From a bacterium (GTDB taxonomy: Bacteria; Electryoneota; Electryoneia; Electryoneales; Electryoneaceae), in contig JAZDLX010000095.1 in assembly GCA_043801585.1 (NCBI GenBank), positions 1 to 34,252 on the forward strand: a stretch of 34,252 nt of DNA. Direction: 5' to 3'. A program made the position numbers and the translations under genes. Each line of letters starts with the position of its first letter. Positions within the stretch are counted from its first letter, which is position 1. The notes below the pieces were generated by a model. That model did no database searches and had not been told where the DNA came from. It saw only the letters and a program-made list of their open reading frames with translations. Shown here one piece after another: positions 2,159 to 24,280 of the stretch.

Positions 2159-4216
<2,058 letters not shown>

Positions 4217-4232
4217 CACGGGAGACGATCCA

Positions 4233-4367
4233 ATGGACGAGCAGGGCAACACGTCCAGCGAACACCCCGAAGAGCAACCCGTCTGGGAAGCTCCGGAAAT
4301 TCTTGAACAGGGGCATGTCGAAGCGCGCCTGTTCAGCGACGAACCGGACCCCTGGGGTGGCCCCTGA
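4233..4367 (+). CDS. Putative RiPP precursor peptide, 44 aa (MDEQGNTSSEHPEEQPVWEAPEILEQGHVEARLFSDEPDPWGGP)
   Basis: ATG 4233 with GGAG at 4221-4224; WEAPEILEQG matches the (Y/W)xxPx(L/I)xxxG RRE-binding leader motif; heads a cluster containing a PqqD/RRE gene. Confidence 0.8.
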   Translation: MDEQGNTSSEHPEEQPVWEAPEILEQGHVEARLFSDEPDPWGGP

Positions 4368-4767
4368 TCGTGCTCCGGCGCCGCCGGACATGCTGAGGGA
4401 GATGGCTCGCCCCTACTGGCTTCCGGTGTCCGGTGGATCGATGTACCCCCGCCTGCGTGATGGCGATCTTGTCCACGTTGTTCCTTTTCCAGCAGACGAA
4501 ACCCGTTTACCCTGCCCCGGAGACCTGATCCTTTTTCTCCTCGATGGATTACCCGTCGTGCACCGTTATGCCGGCGTGGCACGGGGACTCCACATCGAGC
4601 GTGCGGATCGCTCAGGGCAATCACGGCCGTTCAACCCTAACGATATTCTTGGAGTTGTCACCGCACGCAAAAGATCCAATCGTGTGACGACGATTGGTTT
4701 GCCGTTGCGCTGGAGGATTCTGCGCGAATGGCTACGGATTACGGCGAACTTTCGGCGTCAACCGTGA
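4357..4767 (+). CDS. S24/S26-family (signal peptidase I-like) soluble peptidase
   Basis: VSGGSMYPRLRDGD (catalytic Ser), GDLILF, VVHRY (His); no N-terminal TM helix; start uncertain (GTG 4357 or ATG 4390). Confidence 0.82.
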   Translation: MAPDRAPAPPDMLREMARPYWLPVSGGSMYPRLRDGDLVHVVPFPADETRLPCPGDLILFLLDGLPVVHRYAGVARGLHIERADRSGQSRPFNPNDILGVVTARKRSNRVTTIGLPLRWRILREWLRITANFRRQP

Positions 4768-5903
4768 ACCTCGATCAATTCGCACGTCGCGTCGCGAAGA
4801 TGCTCTCCAGTCGCGAGCCGCCATCTCTTGGCGTACACCCCAGACAGATCCTTTCGCTCTGCTCGCACCACGGTGTTCTTCCACTGCTGGGATACCGTTT
4901 CCGCCAGCATTTCGGAGATCTTGCGGGACTCGCCGACGAACACAGGGAAAGGATCGAGCAATCCGAGCGGGAGACTCTGGTTCGATACACTCTCGCGCGG
5001 GGAGCGCTGAATGACGCCTTGGTCATTCTGAAGCCCTTTCGTCCGGTACTTTTCAAGGGCATTGCCGCCGCGGGAGCATGGCCACTAAGGAGCCTGCGTG
5101 ATCCCGGGGACCTGGACCTGCTTGTTGCTCAGGAGGCCTTTCCCGCGGCAAAGGCGGCACTTCTCAACGCAAGTTGGACGGAACAACCGACGGTACACGG
5201 TCACCTGAATGATGTCGTCAGTGCGAAATATGGTTTCGCCCGCGTTTTTCGCCACCCATCGCGGCCGGTAACGGTCGATCTTCATCGTGAACCGGTGGAC
5301 AGGACGGAGCCGTTTCGCGTAGACCCTGTTCATTTGCTCGCTACGGCTGTGTTAACGGAGGTTGCGAACGGCGTGGTTGTGGCGGTACCCGGCCCCGTAG
5401 AACACCTTTGCCTGCTGGCGCTTCACGCGGTGCGCCACGGGACCTTTCGCCTGCAGGGGTTTGTTGATGTATTCATGTGGCTGGAGCGGCACAAAAACGC
5501 CATTAGAGATATAGAGATAACCAAATATATAAGGGACAACCGGATCTTTCGTGCGGTTTCTGTCGCACTCCTGATCACTCAAAACCTCTTTGAGGATCTT
5601 CCCTTGGAAGTTCGCGGCTTCGATCAGGACCCCGTTGTGCGCTTTGCGGCGGCCCGGCGGAAACCCGGTGTGCTGGTTCGGAGCCATTTGACCGCGCGGG
5701 GTGGAGTCAGACGGCTGATCGCACTGATCGACCTGATCGATAGCCCTGTTCTGGCTTTACGTTACGTGTTTCGATTGGTTTTCCCCGCTCCGGAAATCAT
5801 GGGTTTACCCTCTGGCAACAGAATATTTGCCTACCTTAGGCAACGTATAAAGACGTTTCTTCACTTGCTCCCAAGTTTCGAGCGTTTGGAGAAAGATTCT
5901 TGA
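4764..5903 (+). CDS. Nucleotidyltransferase family protein (NTP_transf_5-like)
   Basis: LFKG...RDPGDLDLLV, VDLH and LxLHAxRH motifs; GTG 4764 overlaps the upstream TGA (GTGA). Confidence 0.85.
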   Translation: MNLDQFARRVAKMLSSREPPSLGVHPRQILSLCSHHGVLPLLGYRFRQHFGDLAGLADEHRERIEQSERETLVRYTLARGALNDALVILKPFRPVLFKGIAAAGAWPLRSLRDPGDLDLLVAQEAFPAAKAALLNASWTEQPTVHGHLNDVVSAKYGFARVFRHPSRPVTVDLHREPVDRTEPFRVDPVHLLATAVLTEVANGVVVAVPGPVEHLCLLALHAVRHGTFRLQGFVDVFMWLERHKNAIRDIEITKYIRDNRIFRAVSVALLITQNLFEDLPLEVRGFDQDPVVRFAAARRKPGVLVRSHLTARGGVRRLIALIDLIDSPVLALRYVFRLVFPAPEIMGLPSGNRIFAYLRQRIKTFLHLLPSFERLEKDS

Positions 5904-5975: not shown

Positions 5976-6239
5976 ATGGTTTTGCGTCCAGAGGCTTCCA
6001 TCGTCGAACAAGAAGTAGATGATGGGCTTCTTCTTTTACGCGAGACGGGTGATTACATCGTCATCAATCGTACCGGGACCTCCATTTGGAAGCTGACAAA
6101 GAGCAGCGAAACGGCGGAAGAGCTTATTGAAGGAGTTGTTCGGCTTCCCGGTGCACCGCCGCGGACCGAATGCGAGCGCCAATCTAGAATATTCCTCGAG
6201 CGGTTAAAGGACGGGGGATTTCTTGTGGAGGTTGGTTGA
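5976..6239 (+). CDS. PqqD-family peptide chaperone / RiPP recognition element (RRE)
   Basis: 87 aa; EVDDGLLLL...YIVINRTGTSIWKL...FLERLKDGGFL pattern; ATG 5976 with GGGAG RBS. Confidence 0.88.
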   Translation: MVLRPEASIVEQEVDDGLLLLRETGDYIVINRTGTSIWKLTKSSETAEELIEGVVRLPGAPPRTECERQSRIFLERLKDGGFLVEVG

Positions 6240-7135
6240 AACGATTCCGTTACGCAGGTATTCTCGTCCAGGTTGAAGTGGATGAGGGGCTTCCGGACAT
6301 CGCGCTACCCTATGCGATGGCCTTGGAAACGGGCAACGAGGACGCACCCGACATCGTCGTTCGTCTTTCTGTCGGAACGTTGAAAACCGAGGTTGCCTCC
6401 GGTCCGGTCCGGCTGCTTCGCGGGGGAATGGAGGCGCGTGGGGACCAGGACCGGATGCTCTGGACCCATCGTGAAATGGGCCCGATAATTGAAGTTTTTC
6501 CACGATCCGGATCGATCAATGTAACACTCCCGAGTTGGGCCTGGACTCGGGTTAACGACGTTTTTGACCAATTGCTGCTTCCCGGCTTGCTGCCGGCGTT
6601 TGCTGTTCGAGGGTTGCGTGCCTTCCATGCGTCAGCGGTTGAAATCAACGGCATTGGTGTTTTTATCGCAGGGGCTTCAGGGAGCGGAAAAACAACAGCA
6701 GCCCTTTTGTTGATTTCCCATGGTGCTAATCTCGTCGCCGACGATCTGATGTTTTTGTATCGGGAAGAGGGGCATGCGGTGATCAGCGGAATCGGGGATG
6801 GCCTGCGTGCCCGTGACGATGTCTGGGAGCGTTTCAGCCACCTTCGGCCATCATCCGAGGAGTCCTCGGGAAAAAGACGCCTGGAACATGGGAACGTACC
6901 CTGGGTTCGGTCGGCGAATCCGAGGGTGGGAATTCTCCTCGATCCCGAGAGAGGCGCCGGAAAAATTCAAACATCCCAGGCCCTGCCAAAGCTTCTTTCG
7001 TTGTGCTATCATGCAGGAGACGAGGAGGCCGCATTGCGTATGTTGGCGGAGCTTTCAAAAGATGTGCTATTGTTCAGCGCCGAAAACGCCGAACGTGCCG
7101 CAACCATTGCGGTGCAACCGGAGGAGTCGGTGTGA
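6236..7135 (+). CDS. HPr-kinase-related P-loop kinase
   Basis: FHASAVEINGIGVFIAGASGSGKTT (Walker A) and LVADD motifs; TTG start overlaps the PqqD stop. Confidence 0.85.
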   Translation: MKRFRYAGILVQVEVDEGLPDIALPYAMALETGNEDAPDIVVRLSVGTLKTEVASGPVRLLRGGMEARGDQDRMLWTHREMGPIIEVFPRSGSINVTLPSWAWTRVNDVFDQLLLPGLLPAFAVRGLRAFHASAVEINGIGVFIAGASGSGKTTAALLLISHGANLVADDLMFLYREEGHAVISGIGDGLRARDDVWERFSHLRPSSEESSGKRRLEHGNVPWVRSANPRVGILLDPERGAGKIQTSQALPKLLSLCYHAGDEEAALRMLAELSKDVLLFSAENAERAATIAVQPEESV

Positions 7136-7170
7136 TGATGGACAGATGGCATGATTTACGGAGGAGAACA

Positions 7171-7863
7171 ATGCCCGGCGGGTGGATTTCCGTTTTGATC
7201 AACAGACGGAGCGCAGCGTGGACACTGTTGCTTGTGTTCGTGCTGTATGCAGGCAGACTTGCGGCCCAAACCGCGGAGAACGAGATGCCGATGTCGCCCG
7301 GAGACAAGATGCTGATCCTCTACTACGAGGACGCCTCATCCTCCGTCGAGCCGGTGTCCGTTGACGTTATTGTCGATCAACAGGGTAAAATTTTCATGCC
7401 AATGCTCGGCGAGGTGACCGCGAGCGGAAAGACCTCGGCGCAACTGGAGAAAGAACTCGTTGCGGCCTATAGCGAATTTGTCGAGCATCCATTGGTTTCC
7501 GTTCGGATCGAATTTCAACAGGCGCGGGTGGCGTATCTGCTGGGGGCGGTCAACCAGCAGGGCGCGTACCAGGTTGAATCGGGAACGACGTTGAGTCGGT
7601 TTCTTTCCGAGCATGGCGGCGTGAGCCCAAACGCGGACCTGACCAGTGTCTGGCTGTTACGCGGCGAAAAGAAACGAATGGCGGTGAACGTTGCCAACAT
7701 CTTCGAATCCAACAACCCGAAAGATGACATCGTCATCGAAGCGGGTGACAGGATCTTTATCCCAATCAGGGGCAGCAGCTCGCTTGACCGCGCCGCACGG
7801 TTGATGCAGGTCCTCACGATGGTTTTACAGGCGGCACTCTTTGTCGTCGTGCTCACGAGGTAA
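7171..7863 (+). CDS. Polysaccharide biosynthesis/export protein (Poly_export + SLBB, Wza-like)
   Basis: PGD, VDQQGKIFMPMLGEVTASGKT, LGAVNQQG, GDRIFIP; signal peptide; GAGGAG RBS before ATG 7171 (ATG 7135 also possible). Confidence 0.88.
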   Translation: MPGGWISVLINRRSAAWTLLLVFVLYAGRLAAQTAENEMPMSPGDKMLILYYEDASSSVEPVSVDVIVDQQGKIFMPMLGEVTASGKTSAQLEKELVAAYSEFVEHPLVSVRIEFQQARVAYLLGAVNQQGAYQVESGTTLSRFLSEHGGVSPNADLTSVWLLRGEKKRMAVNVANIFESNNPKDDIVIEAGDRIFIPIRGSSSLDRAARLMQVLTMVLQAALFVVVLTR

Positions 7864-7878: not shown

Positions 7879-10200
7879 ATGGCGCAGTACGATTTGAACC
7901 TGCGTGACGTACAGCGCATTCTTCGCAGACGCTGGAAGGTGGTGGTGTTCTCCACGCTTCTGGTCGTCGGATTCAGTTATTTCTTCGGCAAGTCACGCCA
8001 GCCCTTGTACAACTCGACGTCTTCCGTAAAAATCGAGGAGACGAGCACAGTCGCCGGCCTGCTTCTTCAACGCCTTACCTATAGCCGCTGGGACAACATT
8101 GCAACGGCACAGGAACTGATCCGAAGCTTCCCCGTGATGGAACGTGTTGCACGGCGCCTTGGCAAAATCGAACCGGGGCTGACCTCGGAACAGGTGCGGT
8201 CAGACCAGGAGATCAGCGCGCGGGTCAACCGGATGATCAACCAGGTAACGACGGAACGCAACGGCCGAACGAACATCATCGACATCACCGTTTCCTCGAC
8301 CGATCCGCATGAAGCACGCAATATCGCCCAAACATTGGCCGAGGTCTTCCGCGAGGTTCACCTGGAGGACCGTTCAAGCCAGGACCGGGAAACTCGTGAA
8401 TTCATCGAGCGGCAAACACGCATCGCGCAGAATTCTCTCGACGGTGCTGAAGAAAAACTACAGCGATTCCGCGAACAGACGAAGCAGCCGGTGCTTGACG
8501 ATCTTGTCCGCTCGAAGGTGGATGAGCTTGGCGCCAAGCAGGAATCGCTGCGTAAGATTCAGCAGCAGATCAGTCAGATGGAAACGCAGTTGGCGCAGGT
8601 GCGTCAACGCCAGTCGCTCGGCGTAAACGAGGTGCCAGACCTGAGCCGGCCCTCCCTGCAGAAACTTGAAAAACAGGGCGAACTCCGTGCAATCGACTGG
8701 TTTGAAGTCAGTGACATGTCCTCGGCGTTGATCAGCCTCAACGACAAATTGATCGAGCTGGAGACAAAAAAGCGTGACCTGCTGCGCCGCTTCAAGCCTA
8801 ACGCACCCTCCGTCATCGAAGTTGAATCGGAGGTCCAGGATATTCTCCGTGAAATCACGAAAGAGGCAAACGATAATCTGGCAAACCTCCAAAAAGAAGG
8901 GAGGGGTACCCAGGCGTCGATTGCCGCACTGCAGACGGAGCTGGAGGGTGTTCCGGAATCGCAGCGGCATTACGCGCAGCTTCAGCGTGAAGTGAAGCTT
9001 CGTGAAGAACAGTACGGTATGCTCTCGCTGAAATACCAGGAAGCGCTTATCAGGGAAGCGGATCAGGCGGACGAGGTTAGCCTTGTTCGTCCCGCAATGC
9101 TGAACACACAGCCGATCAACGTCAACTTGAATCGCCTGGTAACCGTGGGCCTCGTAATCGGGCTTGCGCTTGGCCTTGTGCTTGCGTTTCTGTTCGAAAC
9201 GTTCGACACCTCAATCGGAACCATCGAGGACGTCGAAGAATATCTCCAGGTACCGGTACTCGGAGTGATCCCCAGCATCGATATCGACGCGGTCGTCGAG
9301 CATCTTGTGCGGCGAAACCCATCGATGGAAAACAATCCGAACCTGGAAGCCTCCGCACGGTTGATTACTCATATCGCACCGAAAGACCCTGTGGCGGAAG
9401 GATACCGTGCGCTTCGCACAGCGATCCAATTCCGCTCGATCAGCCATCCGATCCGGACGATCACAACCACCTCTGCGTCACTCCAGGAAGGAAAGTCTAC
9501 CACGGTGGTCAATTTGGCGATCACCATGGCGCAAGGCGGGACAAAGGTTTTGCTCGTCGGCTGCAACCTGCGCCGCCCAAGCCTCTACAAGGTGTTCGGC
9601 ATCGACCAGGCCCCCGGAGTGGTGGACATTGTGCTCGGACGAATGCCGTGGCGCGAAACGATTAAAACGGTGACTGACATCATCATGGGCGACCTTGGCA
9701 TGGACAGCGCCCTGATGACACCGGGCATGGAAAACCTTCATATCATAACCAGCGGCGGGATTCCACCAAACCCATCGGAAATGCTCGTTTCGAAGCAGAT
9801 GGCCCAGTTCATTGATGAAGCGAAGGAGGAGTTCGACATCGTCCTCTTCGACGCACCGCCGGTTCTGCCGGTTACCGACGCAGCAATCCTTGCAAAGCGG
9901 ACCGACGCGACGCTGCTGATCTACCGCACGGGGAAGGTTCCTCGCGCCGCATTGAAACGGGCCAAATCCCAAATCGAGTCGGTGGGAGCACGTGTGCTTG
10001 GTGTTGTGCTGAACGATCTGAGGGCGGAACTTGTAGGTTATTCCGGTTCGCAGTACTACTACGGCAAATACTATGGCTCATCAGGAGAGAACGAGGTAAT
10101 GTCCGAGAAAAAAGGGAAGACCGGGGGAGGGTTGGGCCGCAAGCTGAAAAGCCGCCTGGGAGGCGGGCTTTTCTCGTCACAAAAACGGCAGAAAGTGTAG
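7879..10200 (+). CDS. Polysaccharide co-polymerase / BY tyrosine kinase (Wzc/GumC-like)
   Basis: Two TM helices flanking a coiled-coil domain, EGYRALRT, QEGKST, FDAPP, C-terminal Tyr cluster YSGSQYYYGKYY. Confidence 0.93.
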   Translation: MAQYDLNLRDVQRILRRRWKVVVFSTLLVVGFSYFFGKSRQPLYNSTSSVKIEETSTVAGLLLQRLTYSRWDNIATAQELIRSFPVMERVARRLGKIEPGLTSEQVRSDQEISARVNRMINQVTTERNGRTNIIDITVSSTDPHEARNIAQTLAEVFREVHLEDRSSQDRETREFIERQTRIAQNSLDGAEEKLQRFREQTKQPVLDDLVRSKVDELGAKQESLRKIQQQISQMETQLAQVRQRQSLGVNEVPDLSRPSLQKLEKQGELRAIDWFEVSDMSSALISLNDKLIELETKKRDLLRRFKPNAPSVIEVESEVQDILREITKEANDNLANLQKEGRGTQASIAALQTELEGVPESQRHYAQLQREVKLREEQYGMLSLKYQEALIREADQADEVSLVRPAMLNTQPINVNLNRLVTVGLVIGLALGLVLAFLFETFDTSIGTIEDVEEYLQVPVLGVIPSIDIDAVVEHLVRRNPSMENNPNLEASARLITHIAPKDPVAEGYRALRTAIQFRSISHPIRTITTTSASLQEGKSTTVVNLAITMAQGGTKVLLVGCNLRRPSLYKVFGIDQAPGVVDIVLGRMPWRETIKTVTDIIMGDLGMDSALMTPGMENLHIITSGGIPPNPSEMLVSKQMAQFIDEAKEEFDIVLFDAPPVLPVTDAAILAKRTDATLLIYRTGKVPRAALKRAKSQIESVGARVLGVVLNDLRAELVGYSGSQYYYGKYYGSSGENEVMSEKKGKTGGGLGRKLKSRLGGGLFSSQKRQKV

Positions 10201-10206
10201 CCCGCG

Positions 10207-11709
10207 ATGTTGTTTTCGACTGGCATTGGTATGAGGTCGCGACGGTTTGTGGCGATCTTTTCCATTGTTGGTGTGGTGTTTACCGCAGTCGTTTTAAGTT
10301 TCATCATCGGGCGAAACGAAATCATTGCCCTCTACGTCATCGCCGGGATGGGCCTCTTCATCTTTGCCTACCTGAACACTTCCTTTGGCCTCTCCGTGCT
10401 CATTCTTTCGATGCTGCTTTCTCCGGAATTCAGCATTGGGGGTGCAGGCGGCATTGGGCAGATGTCCCAACGGAACGTTGTGATCCGGATAGACGATGTT
10501 GTTCTCGGACTGATTACACTGTCCTGGATGGCAAGGATGGCCGTAAACAAGGACCTCGGCCTGTTTATCAGAACCCCGTTGAACCGTCCGATGTACATCT
10601 ACCTGGCTTTGAGCCTGATTTCGACCTTGATCGGCATCTTTGCTGGCACCGTTCGTCCAGTGATCGGCCTGCTCTATATCGTCAAGTACTTTCAGTATTT
10701 TCTGATTTTCCTGATGGCAGCGACCCACATCCAGACTTTAAAGCAGGCCGACCGCTATCTGCGTTTGATTCTGTTTACGGCGCTGGCCGTATCTGCGTAT
10801 GCGATCATACAGATACCATCAGGAGTTCGGGTTTCCGCACCGTTTGAAGGGGTTGCCGGCGAAGCCAATACGCTTGGTGGCTATCTGGTACTGATTATCT
10901 GCATCGTCATCGGCCTGATGACCGGTACCCACAACCCGCGACGTGGATTGCTGTACCTGCTGCTTCTTGGCATGCTCGTGTTGCCGTTTATCTATACGCT
11001 ATCCAGATCCTCCTGGATCGCCATTATTCCTGCGATGTTCGCATTTCTCTACTATTCCCCGCTACGGCGTTACATCATGATCGGCCTCCTTGCGGTTGCT
11101 ATCGTTTTACCGCTGATAGCGCCGCCGGAGATCTATGAGCGTATCAACGACACCTTTTCGCACCGAAACCTGCTGCGCGAGGACGTTGTCGAGCTTGGTG
11201 ATACCGCCCTGGATCCGTCAACCTCGGCGCGAATCCTCTCGTGGATATCCACGTTGAAGCAGTATATGCAACGTCCGATTTTCGGGTGGGGGGTGACAGG
11301 GGCCGGGTTCAAGGACGCACAGTATTTTCGTGTTCTCGTCGAAACGGGGGTGCTCGGTTTCGCGGCATTCCTTTACTTGATCTGGGCCGTACAAAAGCTT
11401 GCCAGGCGCAGCTTGAACAGCATCAACCCCACGAAGGAGCCACGGTATCACGGACTTGTCGTCGGTTACATTGCCGGGTACTGGGGGTTGCTGATTCATG
11501 CAATCGGCGCCAACACCTTTATCATCGTGCGCATCATGGAACCTTTCTGGTTTCTCACCGCCATCGTCTGGCTGTTGCCCGAACTGATTCGCAAGGAAAA
11601 CGCAAAACGTGACACAGAGGTCAACCTGGACCCCGAGGTCATCTCGTTCCTTAAAAGCAACGAACCATCGAAGGGATCGGATTCGATTGAGTCTGAACCC
11701 TGGTTCTAA
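10207..11709 (+). CDS. O-antigen ligase / Wzy_C family membrane protein
   Basis: Many TM helices, RVSAPF..EANTLGGY, TLSRSSW, RILSW....RPIFGWG, LVETGVLG. Confidence 0.85.
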   Translation: MLFSTGIGMRSRRFVAIFSIVGVVFTAVVLSFIIGRNEIIALYVIAGMGLFIFAYLNTSFGLSVLILSMLLSPEFSIGGAGGIGQMSQRNVVIRIDDVVLGLITLSWMARMAVNKDLGLFIRTPLNRPMYIYLALSLISTLIGIFAGTVRPVIGLLYIVKYFQYFLIFLMAATHIQTLKQADRYLRLILFTALAVSAYAIIQIPSGVRVSAPFEGVAGEANTLGGYLVLIICIVIGLMTGTHNPRRGLLYLLLLGMLVLPFIYTLSRSSWIAIIPAMFAFLYYSPLRRYIMIGLLAVAIVLPLIAPPEIYERINDTFSHRNLLREDVVELGDTALDPSTSARILSWISTLKQYMQRPIFGWGVTGAGFKDAQYFRVLVETGVLGFAAFLYLIWAVQKLARRSLNSINPTKEPRYHGLVVGYIAGYWGLLIHAIGANTFIIVRIMEPFWFLTAIVWLLPELIRKENAKRDTEVNLDPEVISFLKSNEPSKGSDSIESEPWF

Positions 11710-20969: not shown

Positions 20970-21509
20970 ATGAACTTGAACTCAGCAGCGCGAATCGATG
21001 CCAACACCTTTGAACGGGGACTCACCTGGAAAGGTTACCTGGCGCTTGGCGTGCACTCCCGTGAAACACAGGAACGCCGATACAGGGAGACAAAAAGCGA
21101 GAGTTTGGGGCATCTCCGTCTGACTCGAACGAACCTGAGAGCGGTAATCGTCACCCTTCCCGACTGCGCGGATGGGGCCTGGGCGGTTCCCCGGCTTGTC
21201 TATCTATTGAAGGAGCACCTTGGCGTACCTGTTCGCCTCTTCCACCGTGAAAACCACCCCGATTTGATGAACCTGTTGCTGACAAAGGGAAAACGGTCCG
21301 TGCCAAAGATGGCCTTGATCGACGAAAACGGGACTATCGTTGCGCAATGGGGGCCACGACCGGCGCCGATCCAATCCTACGTCGAAGAGTCGGTGGGGAT
21401 GGTCGATACCGTGAAGTGGAAGGAGAAACTGTTCGAATACTACAGAAGTGATGAAAGCAGGGTACATTTCTTCCAGGAACTTGACGGCCTATTCAAGGGG
21501 TTGAAATGA
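20970..21509 (+). CDS. Thioredoxin-like protein (Thioredoxin_9-type)
   Basis: CADGAWAVP, RENHPDLM, RSVPK, WGPRP motifs. Confidence 0.8.
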   Translation: MNLNSAARIDANTFERGLTWKGYLALGVHSRETQERRYRETKSESLGHLRLTRTNLRAVIVTLPDCADGAWAVPRLVYLLKEHLGVPVRLFHRENHPDLMNLLLTKGKRSVPKMALIDENGTIVAQWGPRPAPIQSYVEESVGMVDTVKWKEKLFEYYRSDESRVHFFQELDGLFKGLK

Positions 21510-24280
21510 AAACAGCATCTCTGACACGGTCGATTCGCCGGTTGGTCGTGCTTGTCCTTGTGGCGTTTGTTGTCTGCGCGGAGTCGGCACAGGCGCGCGA
21601 GGTGGTTTATGTGCGGCTGACTGACCGGACAAAAGGGTTGACCCCAAGCCTCAAGCAGTCTGGGCGTGTGATTGATTCGAAACGGTTGATTCCCGTTGTC
21701 GCCGACGACAAAGCTTTTCCCCGCTCGCCGGTTACACGCTGGGTGCGCATGGAGGCACGGGACGCCGATGAGGCGGACCAGATGCTGAAAGAACTTCGTG
21801 ACGATCCCGCTGTGGAAGTCGCGGAACGGATGCCGCAACGGACCACCTGCGGCCTGCCCGGCTCCCGTTCGCCCAACGGTCTGCCGCTCGACCCGTTAAG
21901 TCAATTCCAATGGTACCTCGACGCGGTCAATGCCTGGGCCGCCTGGGACCGCGTGCCGGACGCCTCATCCGTGACCGTTGCGATCCTCGACAACGGCTGT
22001 GACATGGCACACCCGGACCTTACCTCTGCGTTCTGGACGAACGAGGACGAAGCGAACGGTCGAAGCGGTGTCGATGACGACAACAACGGTTATGTGGACG
22101 ACGTCCACGGCTGGGATTTCTTTGAAAACGACTCCAACCCCAACGCCCCCAACGAGGGAAGCGAACCGAGTCATGGAACGCATTGTGCGGGAATTGTCGG
22201 AGCGACGGTAAACAACGGGATCGGTATTGCCGGTATGGCGCCGGGAGTACGGTTGATGATCGTACGGATCGGCGAGGATCGTTCTATTTACTACCCGGTG
22301 GAAGGGATGATCTATGCGGCGGCAAACGGTGCAGACGTGATCTCCATGTCCTTTTCGGGAGAACTTTCTTCCGTGTTCGAACGTGACGCGGTCGATTTTG
22401 CCACATCGCGGGGTGTTGTGTTGCTTGCGGCGGCGGGAAACGACGGCTCGACATCGCGTAATTATCCGGCGGCCTACGAAAACGTGGTCGCTGTGGGCGC
22501 GACAGACCCCACTGGCGCGCTTGCCTACTTCAGCAACAGGGGTGACTGGGTGGATCTTGCCGCCCCGGGAACCGGCATTCTATCAACCTCTATTCAGGGA
22601 TATAAATATCTGGATGGAACATCGATGGCGACTCCGTTGACGGCGGGAATCGCTGCCTTGGTCCGGGCCCAAGATCCGTCCGCGGACCCAGCTGTTGTTC
22701 GCGCCCGGATTGGGCAGGGAGCTGTGCCGTTAACGGTCAGTCCGTCTCTGGTGGTCTCGGGGCGGGTCGATGCATGGCGGTCTTCTTTCGCTGGCAGGCC
22801 CACCGTAATTGTCAACGGGGCGAGCTTCGAGGATGAAAACGGTAACGGGTTGGTCGAACCCGGTGAAACAGTGACAATGATGCTTGATGCGGAGTTGGCT
22901 GGAGAGTCCGCCGCATCCCTAATCGTCGGACTCGAGTCACGGGAAACCTCTCTGGTCGTGTCCGGCGAACCGGTAACCCTTTCGCCGGTATCCATCGGGG
23001 CGCTGTCTCTGAGTCCACTCGAATTTCTGGTTACGTCTTCAGCAGCACGTGGCAACCATGACCTCTATCTCACGATCGACGCTGATGGCTGGAGCGACAG
23101 CCAGCGCTTGACCGTTCCGGTCGATCCGCACTGGCGGACCCACGATGCCGGAGGGATGATTGCATCGGTGACGGATTTTGGCGCCATCGGCTACCGCGAC
23201 CTTTACAACAACCGTGATGACGCCGAGGGGATTCGCCTCAACGGCGCCTCACGCGGATTCCTGTTTCATGGAAGCGTGCTTGTGTCCGACGGGGCACATG
23301 TCTCTGACTGTGCGTACGGGAACGACACCTACACTCGTTTCGATTTTCAAAACATCGATACAGATCCGATTCGACCTGTCGGCTCTGTTGCGGGTACCCA
23401 GGTTTTTCGCGCAAAATACACGGATTTCGGCGTCACGCCACGAGTTGGAGTCGAAGTCACACAGACGACGACAAGTCAAACAGAAGGCTCAAACGTTGTG
23501 CGCATGGACCTCGACGTGCGCAAGTGGGACACCGGGACAGCAAGCTATGACGTCGGCCTCTACATGGACTGGGACATCGGCGACGCTGAAGACAACGACG
23601 TTCGTTTCAATTCGAATCTCAAACTTTCTTACATGATTGGAAGCGAGGGGGCCGGCGGGGTGATGGTTGTGGACAACACCCAGAATCCAACCCCTCTGAT
23701 TGCTGCCGCTGCGATCTACAACCCTGCGGTGCTTTACCAAACCGGTTTCGACACATTCACCGACAGCGAAAAGCTTGATCTGCTCGAAGGAGGAACGACC
23801 CAGGCGGTTTCCAGTTTCAGCGGAGAGTGGTCGCACATGATCGCCGTCAACCTCTCGGGGGTCACGGAGCAAGTTTCTAAGCGAGCCTCCTTTCTGATTC
23901 TTGCCGCTTCTGACGAGAGTGAACTGCTCGCGATTGCGACAAGCCAGGCGGGGAACACCCTGAAATCCGGCGGATCAGGGGGTAACATTACCCTCGTTCC
24001 GGATCGATTCAGCCTCTCGCCAGCATGGCCGAACCCCTTTAACTCGGAAACCCGGATGCGCCTGCAACTGACGGAGAGCGGAAATGTCCAGGCGGTGGTG
24101 TACGACATCCTCGGCCGTAAAGTCGCTGTGCTGCACAATGGCGCAGTGCAGACGGGCACCTTCATTCTCCGTTGGGACGGACGGAACGAAGCCGGTCACA
24201 CCGTGGCGTCGGGCACTTATCTGGTGCGCGTGAAAGGGCCCGAAGGATCACAATTGCGCCGTATAACTCTCGTCAGATAA
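21506..24280 (+). CDS. Secreted S8 subtilisin-like serine protease with C-terminal FlgD-Ig/T9SS-type sorting domain
   Basis: VAILDNG, HGTHCAG, AAAGN, GTSMATP; DDDNNGYVDD calcium loop; WPNPFN...YDILGR...WDG...ASGTY tail; signal peptide. Confidence 0.93.
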   Translation: MKTASLTRSIRRLVVLVLVAFVVCAESAQAREVVYVRLTDRTKGLTPSLKQSGRVIDSKRLIPVVADDKAFPRSPVTRWVRMEARDADEADQMLKELRDDPAVEVAERMPQRTTCGLPGSRSPNGLPLDPLSQFQWYLDAVNAWAAWDRVPDASSVTVAILDNGCDMAHPDLTSAFWTNEDEANGRSGVDDDNNGYVDDVHGWDFFENDSNPNAPNEGSEPSHGTHCAGIVGATVNNGIGIAGMAPGVRLMIVRIGEDRSIYYPVEGMIYAAANGADVISMSFSGELSSVFERDAVDFATSRGVVLLAAAGNDGSTSRNYPAAYENVVAVGATDPTGALAYFSNRGDWVDLAAPGTGILSTSIQGYKYLDGTSMATPLTAGIAALVRAQDPSADPAVVRARIGQGAVPLTVSPSLVVSGRVDAWRSSFAGRPTVIVNGASFEDENGNGLVEPGETVTMMLDAELAGESAASLIVGLESRETSLVVSGEPVTLSPVSIGALSLSPLEFLVTSSAARGNHDLYLTIDADGWSDSQRLTVPVDPHWRTHDAGGMIASVTDFGAIGYRDLYNNRDDAEGIRLNGASRGFLFHGSVLVSDGAHVSDCAYGNDTYTRFDFQNIDTDPIRPVGSVAGTQVFRAKYTDFGVTPRVGVEVTQTTTSQTEGSNVVRMDLDVRKWDTGTASYDVGLYMDWDIGDAEDNDVRFNSNLKLSYMIGSEGAGGVMVVDNTQNPTPLIAAAAIYNPAVLYQTGFDTFTDSEKLDLLEGGTTQAVSSFSGEWSHMIAVNLSGVTEQVSKRASFLILAASDESELLAIATSQAGNTLKSGGSGGNITLVPDRFSLSPAWPNPFNSETRMRLQLTESGNVQAVVYDILGRKVAVLHNGAVQTGTFILRWDGRNEAGHTVASGTYLVRVKGPEGSQLRRITLVR

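Follow-up and report, generated by a model that had tools for sequence, protein, structure and literature searches.

A conserved 44-residue peptide encoded behind gyrB in Electryoneota is the probable substrate of an LPP-like linear phosphopeptide pathway

A 44-codon open reading frame directly behind gyrB in a bacterium of the phylum Electryoneota raises the question of whether it is a gene and, if so, what is made from its peptide. The window, i.e. the whole stretch of DNA that was analysed (34,252 nucleotides; assembly GCA_043801585.1), carries it on the plus strand at positions 4233..4367. The encoded peptide combines an acidic, variable N-terminus with an RRE-binding leader and a short conserved core. 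The original prediction had described a lasso-type leader joined to a core unable to form a lasso, and its reading of the translation holds: W18, P21, I23 and L33 are present, and the ten-residue tail from Ser35 (4335-4364) has acidic residues at positions 2, 3 and 5 and a single Ser. It had also recognized a ribosome-binding site, located here as GGGAG (4220..4224, plus strand), but it is the ATG, and not this site, that lies 16 nt from the gyrB stop codon; the site falls within that gap. Likewise, longer reading frames do overlap the gene (a 73-aa in-frame extension at 4146-4367, 4213-4767 on the plus strand and 3602-4624 on the minus strand), but it was not wholly hidden, as the exact protein was already in the protein collection. 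An orthologue is listed at NCBI as a hypothetical protein. In the preceding gyrB, we noticed a low-complexity Gly/Asn insert in the Toprim region (window 3700-3790).

Among 965 candidates, a profile search for homologues retained 62 proteins, one of them the query, at E≤0.01. Pro21, Leu33, Ser35, Glu37, Pro38 and Pro40 each occur in 62/62 of these, and position 34 is Phe or Tyr in all; the search was seeded on shared words, so that the core owes part of its invariance to the way in which members were picked. Position 18 is Trp or Tyr in 56 of the 62. Both elements whose conservation such a small-ORF search had been proposed to check, the WxxP motif and the core Ser, are thus family features, while the Gly27 that had been fitted to a lasso-leader motif as Gly(-8) is present in the window peptide but in only 34/62 members. 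The core is 9-16 residues long across the family and nearly invariant in sequence. Searches of genomes and loci added three divergent copies, which retain L-[FY]-S and differ downstream of it. Of seven weak precursor matches, six were examined; one (L103) was a real precursor of a sister type described below and five were not convincing. Three of 20 metagenome loci (L086-L088) contained no precursor by the profile and were excluded.

Other signals around the gene were sparse. A purine-rich tetramer resembling a ribosome-binding site precedes all nine starts that were checked, seven of them at a plausible spacing of 4-9 nt, and a promoter and terminator scan around the precursor gave nothing useful. 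Pfam and NCBIfam scans of the 44-aa peptide yielded no match, and the lasso-leader model NF033521 was touched by one family member of 62 (E 0.026). Three unnamed ESM Atlas clusters scored 0.90-0.91 with the peptide, compared with 0.79 for the nearest lasso-leader cluster; we treat these as leads only. Two PDB sequence matches to the precursor profile (E 0.11-0.12) were judged to be chance and set aside. We found no description of the precursor family in a literature search that left most subscription journals outside its reach, and the passages available from PMC7533575, PMC10439189 and bioRxiv 10.1101/2023.03.08.531785 contain nothing on it.

Could the conservation reflect a DNA or RNA element, or an overlapping frame, rather than a translated peptide? 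The overlapping ORFs would permit this, and one reverse frame is open across the stretch in 15/15 copies. However, substitutions sit at third codon positions: among 15 distinct DNA copies, nine of the ten core codons vary at position 3 and one or two at positions 1-2, and pN/pS is 0.04 over Leu33-Gly42 as against 0.41 over the leader. Moreover, ribosome-binding site, start and stop are kept across different gene neighbourhoods. We consider an untranslated element hardly credible and conclude that the 44-aa ORF is a real gene under strong purifying selection on its core.

The precursor gene is followed on the same strand by four small enzyme genes. The first encodes a soluble S24/S26 (SipW/Sec11-like) peptidase (4390..4767; PF00717, 26 bits, cut-off 23.3), for which SEC11 is the nearest in sequence among solved structures. 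Next come an NTP_transf_5 nucleotidyltransferase of PsmN/LppN type (4728..5903; PF14907, E 1.5e-28) with an invariant DxD (Asp128/Asp130), a stand-alone PqqD/RRE protein (5976..6239; PF05402, E 2.4e-08), the only one found in the genome, and an HprK-like peptide kinase resembling PadeK, PsmK and LppK (6236..7135; PF07475, E 3e-12) with Walker A Lys152 and Asp169-Asp170 invariant. Three polysaccharide genes adjoin this cassette on the plus strand: a Wza-type export protein (7135..7863, start estimated; PF02563 and SLBB), a Wzc-type chain-length regulator and tyrosine autokinase (7879..10200; TIGR01007 over cut-off, with a C-terminal Tyr cluster) and a Wzy_C membrane protein of the O-antigen ligase/polymerase family (10207..11709; PF04932, E 1.9e-12). 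Cassette and polysaccharide genes are tightly packed, and the remainder of the window consists of origin-region and metabolic housekeeping genes. Positions 21506-24280 encode a subtilase of 924 aa that carries a FlgD-Ig domain at its C-terminus and is preceded by a thioredoxin-like gene. Variants of the arrangement occur elsewhere: in genus g11, a single ORF of about 545-550 aa encodes peptidase and nucleotidyltransferase as a fusion (L011, L013-L015; L051:8375-10021), and four loci (L020:13058-13447, L024:12969-13349, L028:12940-13350 and L075:10857-11228) have a stand-alone response-regulator receiver gene between kinase and wza that is absent in the window.

Precursor and enzymes go together across the phylum. 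The precursor was detected at E≤1e-8 in 14/79 Electryoneota genomes and an orthologous nucleotidyltransferase (E≤1e-96) in the same 14, four of which had been outside the profile, the next best match elsewhere being 2.5e-32. Precursor, RRE and this type of nucleotidyltransferase each occur once in the source genome. Within its own family, nucleotidyltransferase orthologues occur in 10/15 genomes, with the peptide directly upstream in nine of the ten, one being cut by a contig end; in the tenth the precursor follows gyrB on another contig. The place behind gyrB is kept in 9/11 own-family genomes; of the other two, one has the precursor relocated and in one a contig ends there. In all ten own-family genomes that are informative, wza follows the kinase, with wzc and wzy following too in nine. 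The genomes compared are kin and some are incomplete, so these counts are not independent. In three genomes of two other families, by contrast, one to three precursor copies lie elsewhere than the enzymes, whose four genes, or those the contig still shows, keep their order; because the precursor is separate there, the co-occurrence is not mere hitch-hiking.

The leader and the RRE are what one would expect of a lasso precursor, as the original prediction had noted: the [YW]xxPx[LIV] motif (W18-x-x-P21-x-I23, 4284..4301, plus strand; Pro and Ile/Val each 62/62) and a discrete RRE are both present, and among solved structures the lasso B1 proteins are nearest to that RRE in sequence. The kinase Asp-Asp and the nucleotidyltransferase DxD are likewise shared with the tailoring enzymes of the paeninodin, pseudomycoidin and Bsf lasso peptides, where the corresponding residues of PsmK and PsmN are essential and phospho-Ser receives its hexose(s) only with PsmN (PMC6993621), and where BsfK phosphorylates core Ser3 with the help of the RRE (PMC10368454). 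In contrast to those systems, the window cassette has no macrolactam cyclase, no B2 protease and no ring-forming acid. An acidic residue at core positions 7-9 occurs in 2/62 members in the register of the original prediction and in 1/62 when counting from Phe34, and there is no tail to thread, so that its claim of a core unable to form a lasso stands. A B2 leader protease (PF13471) was detected neither in the source genome (92% complete) nor in any of five relatives, one of them a single contig. Asparagine-synthase-family genes (PF00733) are present twice in the source genome, but both encode 660-670-aa proteins of amidotransferase type and belong to sugar-biosynthesis clusters that lie on other contigs. 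It is thus very improbable that a lasso or another cyclic peptide is made with a closing enzyme encoded elsewhere.

A much closer parallel is the linear polyphosphorylated peptide (LPP) pathway LppA/K/B/S/D/N of Bacillota (Popov et al. 2026; PMC13381572). According to that report, LPP loci combine a SpI peptidase, RRE, HprK kinase and NTP transferase without a cyclase in capsule loci, LppK adds one to four phosphates to core Ser3, and LppS cleaves only together with the RRE LppB; for LppN, no effect was detectable in the heterologous host, and the authors regard the final LPP product and the roles of LPP and paeninodin as unknown. The notion that our precursor is unlike anything known therefore does not hold, as these four enzyme types have already been published as a pathway without cyclase. 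The window cassette likewise has a discrete RRE, a kinase resembling HprK, a SipW-like S26 peptidase and an NTP transferase, no cyclase, and capsule/EPS-type genes next to it. Its precursor shares with LppA the [YW]xxP leader, a hydrophobic residue ten positions after the Pro and a Ser near the start of the core.

There are also clear differences. Instead of the LPP motif YxxPxVLxHQxIxFETxxS (Px9Fx[TA]), the window family has Px9[AVIL]xL followed by [FY]S in 62/62 members, so that A/V/I-x-L replaces F-E-T while the spacing is kept. Judged by LPP Ser29/His68/Asp93, the window peptidase has the fold family, the Ser and the His but no equivalent of Asp93. The LPP core cluster has an MsbA-like exporter, whereas tblastn with the exporter of a paralogous cluster as query found no ABC exporter near the cassette in 15 orthologous loci or the window, a search that was not fully sensitive, since in L027 the locus tblastn failed to pick up an asparagine-synthase fragment, 9.6 kb upstream, which Pfam detected. 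Elsewhere, the source genome does encode distant ABC exporters, at about 29% identity. LPP cores are highly variable and the spread of LPP is patchy (PMC13381572), in contrast to the nearly invariant core of 9-16 residues and the fixed place behind gyrB, and the window peptidase is sometimes lost from the cassette, unlike in the LPP set. Because three of the LPP features tested were lacking, we call the cassette LPP-like and do not file it as a member. Electryoneota names and the core motif had no match in six supplements of PMC13381572. The enzyme set as such is thus already published, whereas the precursor family appears to be undescribed in the sources searched and Electryoneota appears, from sequence, to be another phylum with this pathway type.

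SynChlorMet cassettes (TIGR04248-04251) likewise bring together an RRE, an HprK-related protein, an S26 peptidase and NTP_transf_5, a comparison that is based on NCBIfam models and their names. They differ from the window cassette in that their core is Cys-rich and two of their enzymes are of the radical SAM type; tblastn found no radical SAM gene in the orthologous loci, and the SynChlorMet models scored far below cut-off on the window (ScmC on the kinase, 17.7 versus 125; ScmD on the RRE, 19 versus 100). Three genomes of the phylum contain true SynChlorMet copies with a YxxPxL peptide, and in two of these Pro and Phe are spaced as in the window precursor. L054, L060 and L061 contain cassettes of SynChlorMet type, in L061 with ScmC/D/E/F scoring above cut-off; their precursor ORFs are small, rich in Cys and Gly, and match no NCBIfam model. 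L050, L052, L064 and L065 are clusters of radical SAM, RRE, kinase, nucleotidyltransferase and S26 genes with other Cys-containing precursors, and those of L064 and L065 also precede Wzc-type genes.

Where would the leader end? The original prediction, using lasso numbering, had placed the cut between Phe34 and Ser35, but the protease is of S26 and not of B2 type, and both LppA/LppS and the sister precursor family point to a cut before Phe34. LppA Y-16, P-13, V-11 and L-10 align without gaps to W18, P21, I23 and L24, and I-5, F-3, E-2 and T-1 to V29, A31, R32 and L33. In this register, positions -5 and -3 are aliphatic in 62/62 members, and -2 is Glu in 27/62; in LppS, the -3 residue occupies a hydrophobic cleft (PMC13381572). 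The window precursor differs from LppA in having Ser at +2 instead of +3 and Leu instead of Thr at -1. In the sister family, the core is preceded by Ala-x-Gly (Ala at -3) in 16/19 parsed rows, the Gly having been picked by script, and Ser is at +2 in 12/19. Sister and window families match in hhalign with 82% probability (E 1.1e-5), and one sister-type copy (L103) joins a sister leader to a window-family core that includes the Phe. The sister leader is two residues longer, which means that the spacing from aromatic residue to core is not fixed, and the sister cut site is itself a prediction. By analogy, the lasso numbering is probably off by one, with the cut before Phe34 and Ser at core position 2. 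The replacement of a lasso Thr(-2) by Leu is then an artefact of register. The predicted core would comprise Phe34-Pro44 (11 aa; 4332..4364, plus strand). A cut after E-A, with Ala31 as -1, was dropped, since that position is V/I/L in 29/62 members.

The sister family (L051, L053, L055, L056, L059, L066 and L107-L136) has a YxxPxL leader, A-x-G and an acidic, Pro-rich core. Its clusters contain an ScmC kinase, S26 peptidase, nucleotidyltransferase, RRE and ABC exporter but no radical SAM gene; the family occurs in 16/79 genomes of the phylum, in up to seven copies, and matches the LPP gene set more fully than the window cassette does. L103 (G008:C4:74478-74585 and 75000-75074, minus strand) holds two orphan sister-type precursors, and its bridging copy, with the window-family core on another leader, has no standard start codon. 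Orphan precursors of a second clade (L029:3701-7336, L030:2405-5353, L031, L078, L081:5185-10303, L084 and L085) often lie directly before genes for large secreted Por_Secre_tail proteins, mostly of one 720-735-aa family; in L081, three precursors surround two such genes. These genomes abound in Por_Secre_tail domains (89 to at least 150), so that the link is unproven. In L047:448-1928, L080:747-1370 and L083:605-2134, only a few bases separate another orphan precursor from the B12-binding radical SAM gene that follows it, and the precursor of L047 has a frameshift and Asn in place of Ser.

We propose, at a probability of about 65%, that the ORF encodes the substrate of an LPP-like linear phosphopeptide pathway whose chemistry is modelled on the homologous enzymes. 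In this pathway, the PqqD/RRE protein would very probably bind the W-x-x-P-x-I leader. The Asn33 of LppB, which fixes the leader Pro there, has an equivalent Asn in 13/13 orthologous RREs. At the position that selects Tyr or Trp leaders (Asp70 in LppB, Gln79 in PbaB1), the window RRE has Gln, as PbaB1 does; the equivalent residue is acidic in all three orthologous RREs with Tyr leaders and non-acidic in 8/10 with Trp leaders, but the rule fails in paralogous RREs, which are non-acidic in 7/11 with Tyr leaders and have Asp in both with Trp leaders. A model of the RRE-peptide complex, as had been suggested in the original prediction, scored 0.59 against 0.00 for the best control, and its runs agreed in at least 95% of contacts. 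It is nevertheless rated weak: partner pLDDT was 58-59, and 0.59 lies in a band where passes are more often wrong unless the pairing is likely beforehand (scores of at most 0.60 were those of 18/157 solved complexes and of both passing mismatches of 215). Similar complexes have already been solved, and the pass may stem from that likeness.

The HprK-like kinase would with equal confidence be expected to place one or more phosphates on Ser35 (codon 4335-4337), the only Ser/Thr of the core in 61/62 homologues; the choice of this Ser as the likely target in the original prediction agrees with its presence in every member. Leader removal by the S26 peptidase together with the RRE is a less secure step, and we put a cut at Leu33|Phe34, the likeliest site, at slightly under even odds. 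The core left by it would be acidic, rich in Pro and 11 residues long, with phospho-Ser as its second residue. Finally, the NTP_transf_5 enzyme would plausibly, and with a somewhat better chance than the cut, cap the phosphate with a sugar or a nucleotide. Its structural model is nearest to MenT1 (Z 14.2, rmsd 2.9, 181 aligned), followed by ANT(2'') (11.3), LnuA (9.3) and FKRP (8.3), neighbours that do not choose between nucleotide and sugar transfer. The product would probably be linear and tied to the downstream Wza/Wzc/Wzy surface-polysaccharide system, a tie that is read from gene order.

The weakest step is leader removal, which may not occur, given that the Asp93 equivalent is missing and the peptidase gene has been lost in some lineages. 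Mutation of Asp93 abolished cleavage by LppS (PMC13381572). Its equivalent, six residues past the first Asp, is absent in 15/15 orthologue rows from 14 organisms, two of which have an Asp at +4, but present in 17/17 peptidases of paralogous clusters and in 84/109 parsed database rows (11 further rows were unparsed). The peptidase tree contains two well-supported Asp-less clades, which may or may not be sisters. In addition, the cassettes of G003 and of the single-contig G005 lack the peptidase gene, as that of G012 probably does too, while precursor, nucleotidyltransferase, RRE and kinase are retained in the first two lineages. If the peptidase were a weakened enzyme or a scaffold, the full-length, RRE-bound phosphopeptide could keep its leader and act as an intracellular carrier, primer or regulator for the polysaccharide machinery; the near-invariant core, as expected of a docking part, and the absence of a detectable exporter near the cassette would fit. 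Yet the window peptidase retains Ser17, His58 and Asp73, and Ser, His and first Asp are kept in 11/11 aligned peptidases. The triad of SipW is given as Ser47-His87-Asp106 in the consulted part of a review (PMC8767453), and by spacing its Asp106 would correspond to the retained Asp, so that the peptidase may still be active despite the missing Asp93 equivalent. Moreover, G003, G005 and G012 have paralogous S26 peptidases elsewhere that could act in trans, and Leu33 is as invariant as a protease site would be. We therefore regard a retained leader as unlikely, if worth keeping in view.

Somewhat less likely still is the same pathway with a different cut, either after Phe34, making Ser position 1, or before Leu33, making it position 3. 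Leu33 and Phe/Tyr34 are invariant alike, and each might lie on either side of the cut; the lasso numbering W-17, P-14, I-12 fits the former cut and Ser3 of LppA the latter. However, a cut after Phe34 would place a charged or otherwise variable residue at -3, where LppS has its hydrophobic cleft, and a cut before Leu33 would leave Arg, Lys or Glu at -1. The bridging precursor also keeps Phe with the core, while Gly replaces its Leu. We thus continue to favour the LPP-like pathway with a cut before Phe34.

Whatever its product, the locus is a compact test case: it comprises a single precursor and four enzymes, all small and soluble, and the predicted core of 11 residues contains just one Ser, which would make added groups easy to assign by mass. 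It would extend the pathway type to another phylum, offers natural switches between Trp and Tyr leaders with matching changes in the RRE, and raises the question of whether cleavage is still possible for a leader peptidase that lacks the counterpart of LppS Asp93. As a speculative possibility, to which we give little weight, the peptide could be a small intracellular carrier: the NTP_transf_5 enzyme would load a sugar or nucleotide onto its phospho- or pyrophospho-Ser, and Wza/Wzc/Wzy_C would receive or sense the loaded residue. Such a role would explain why the core is invariant, why the exporter is missing, why the peptidase is eroded and dispensable, and why the place beside gyrB is fixed. 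If this were true, a ribosomal peptide would serve as primer, donor or switch for surface polysaccharide, which would be a new role, and the link of phosphopeptide clusters to capsule loci would gain a function.
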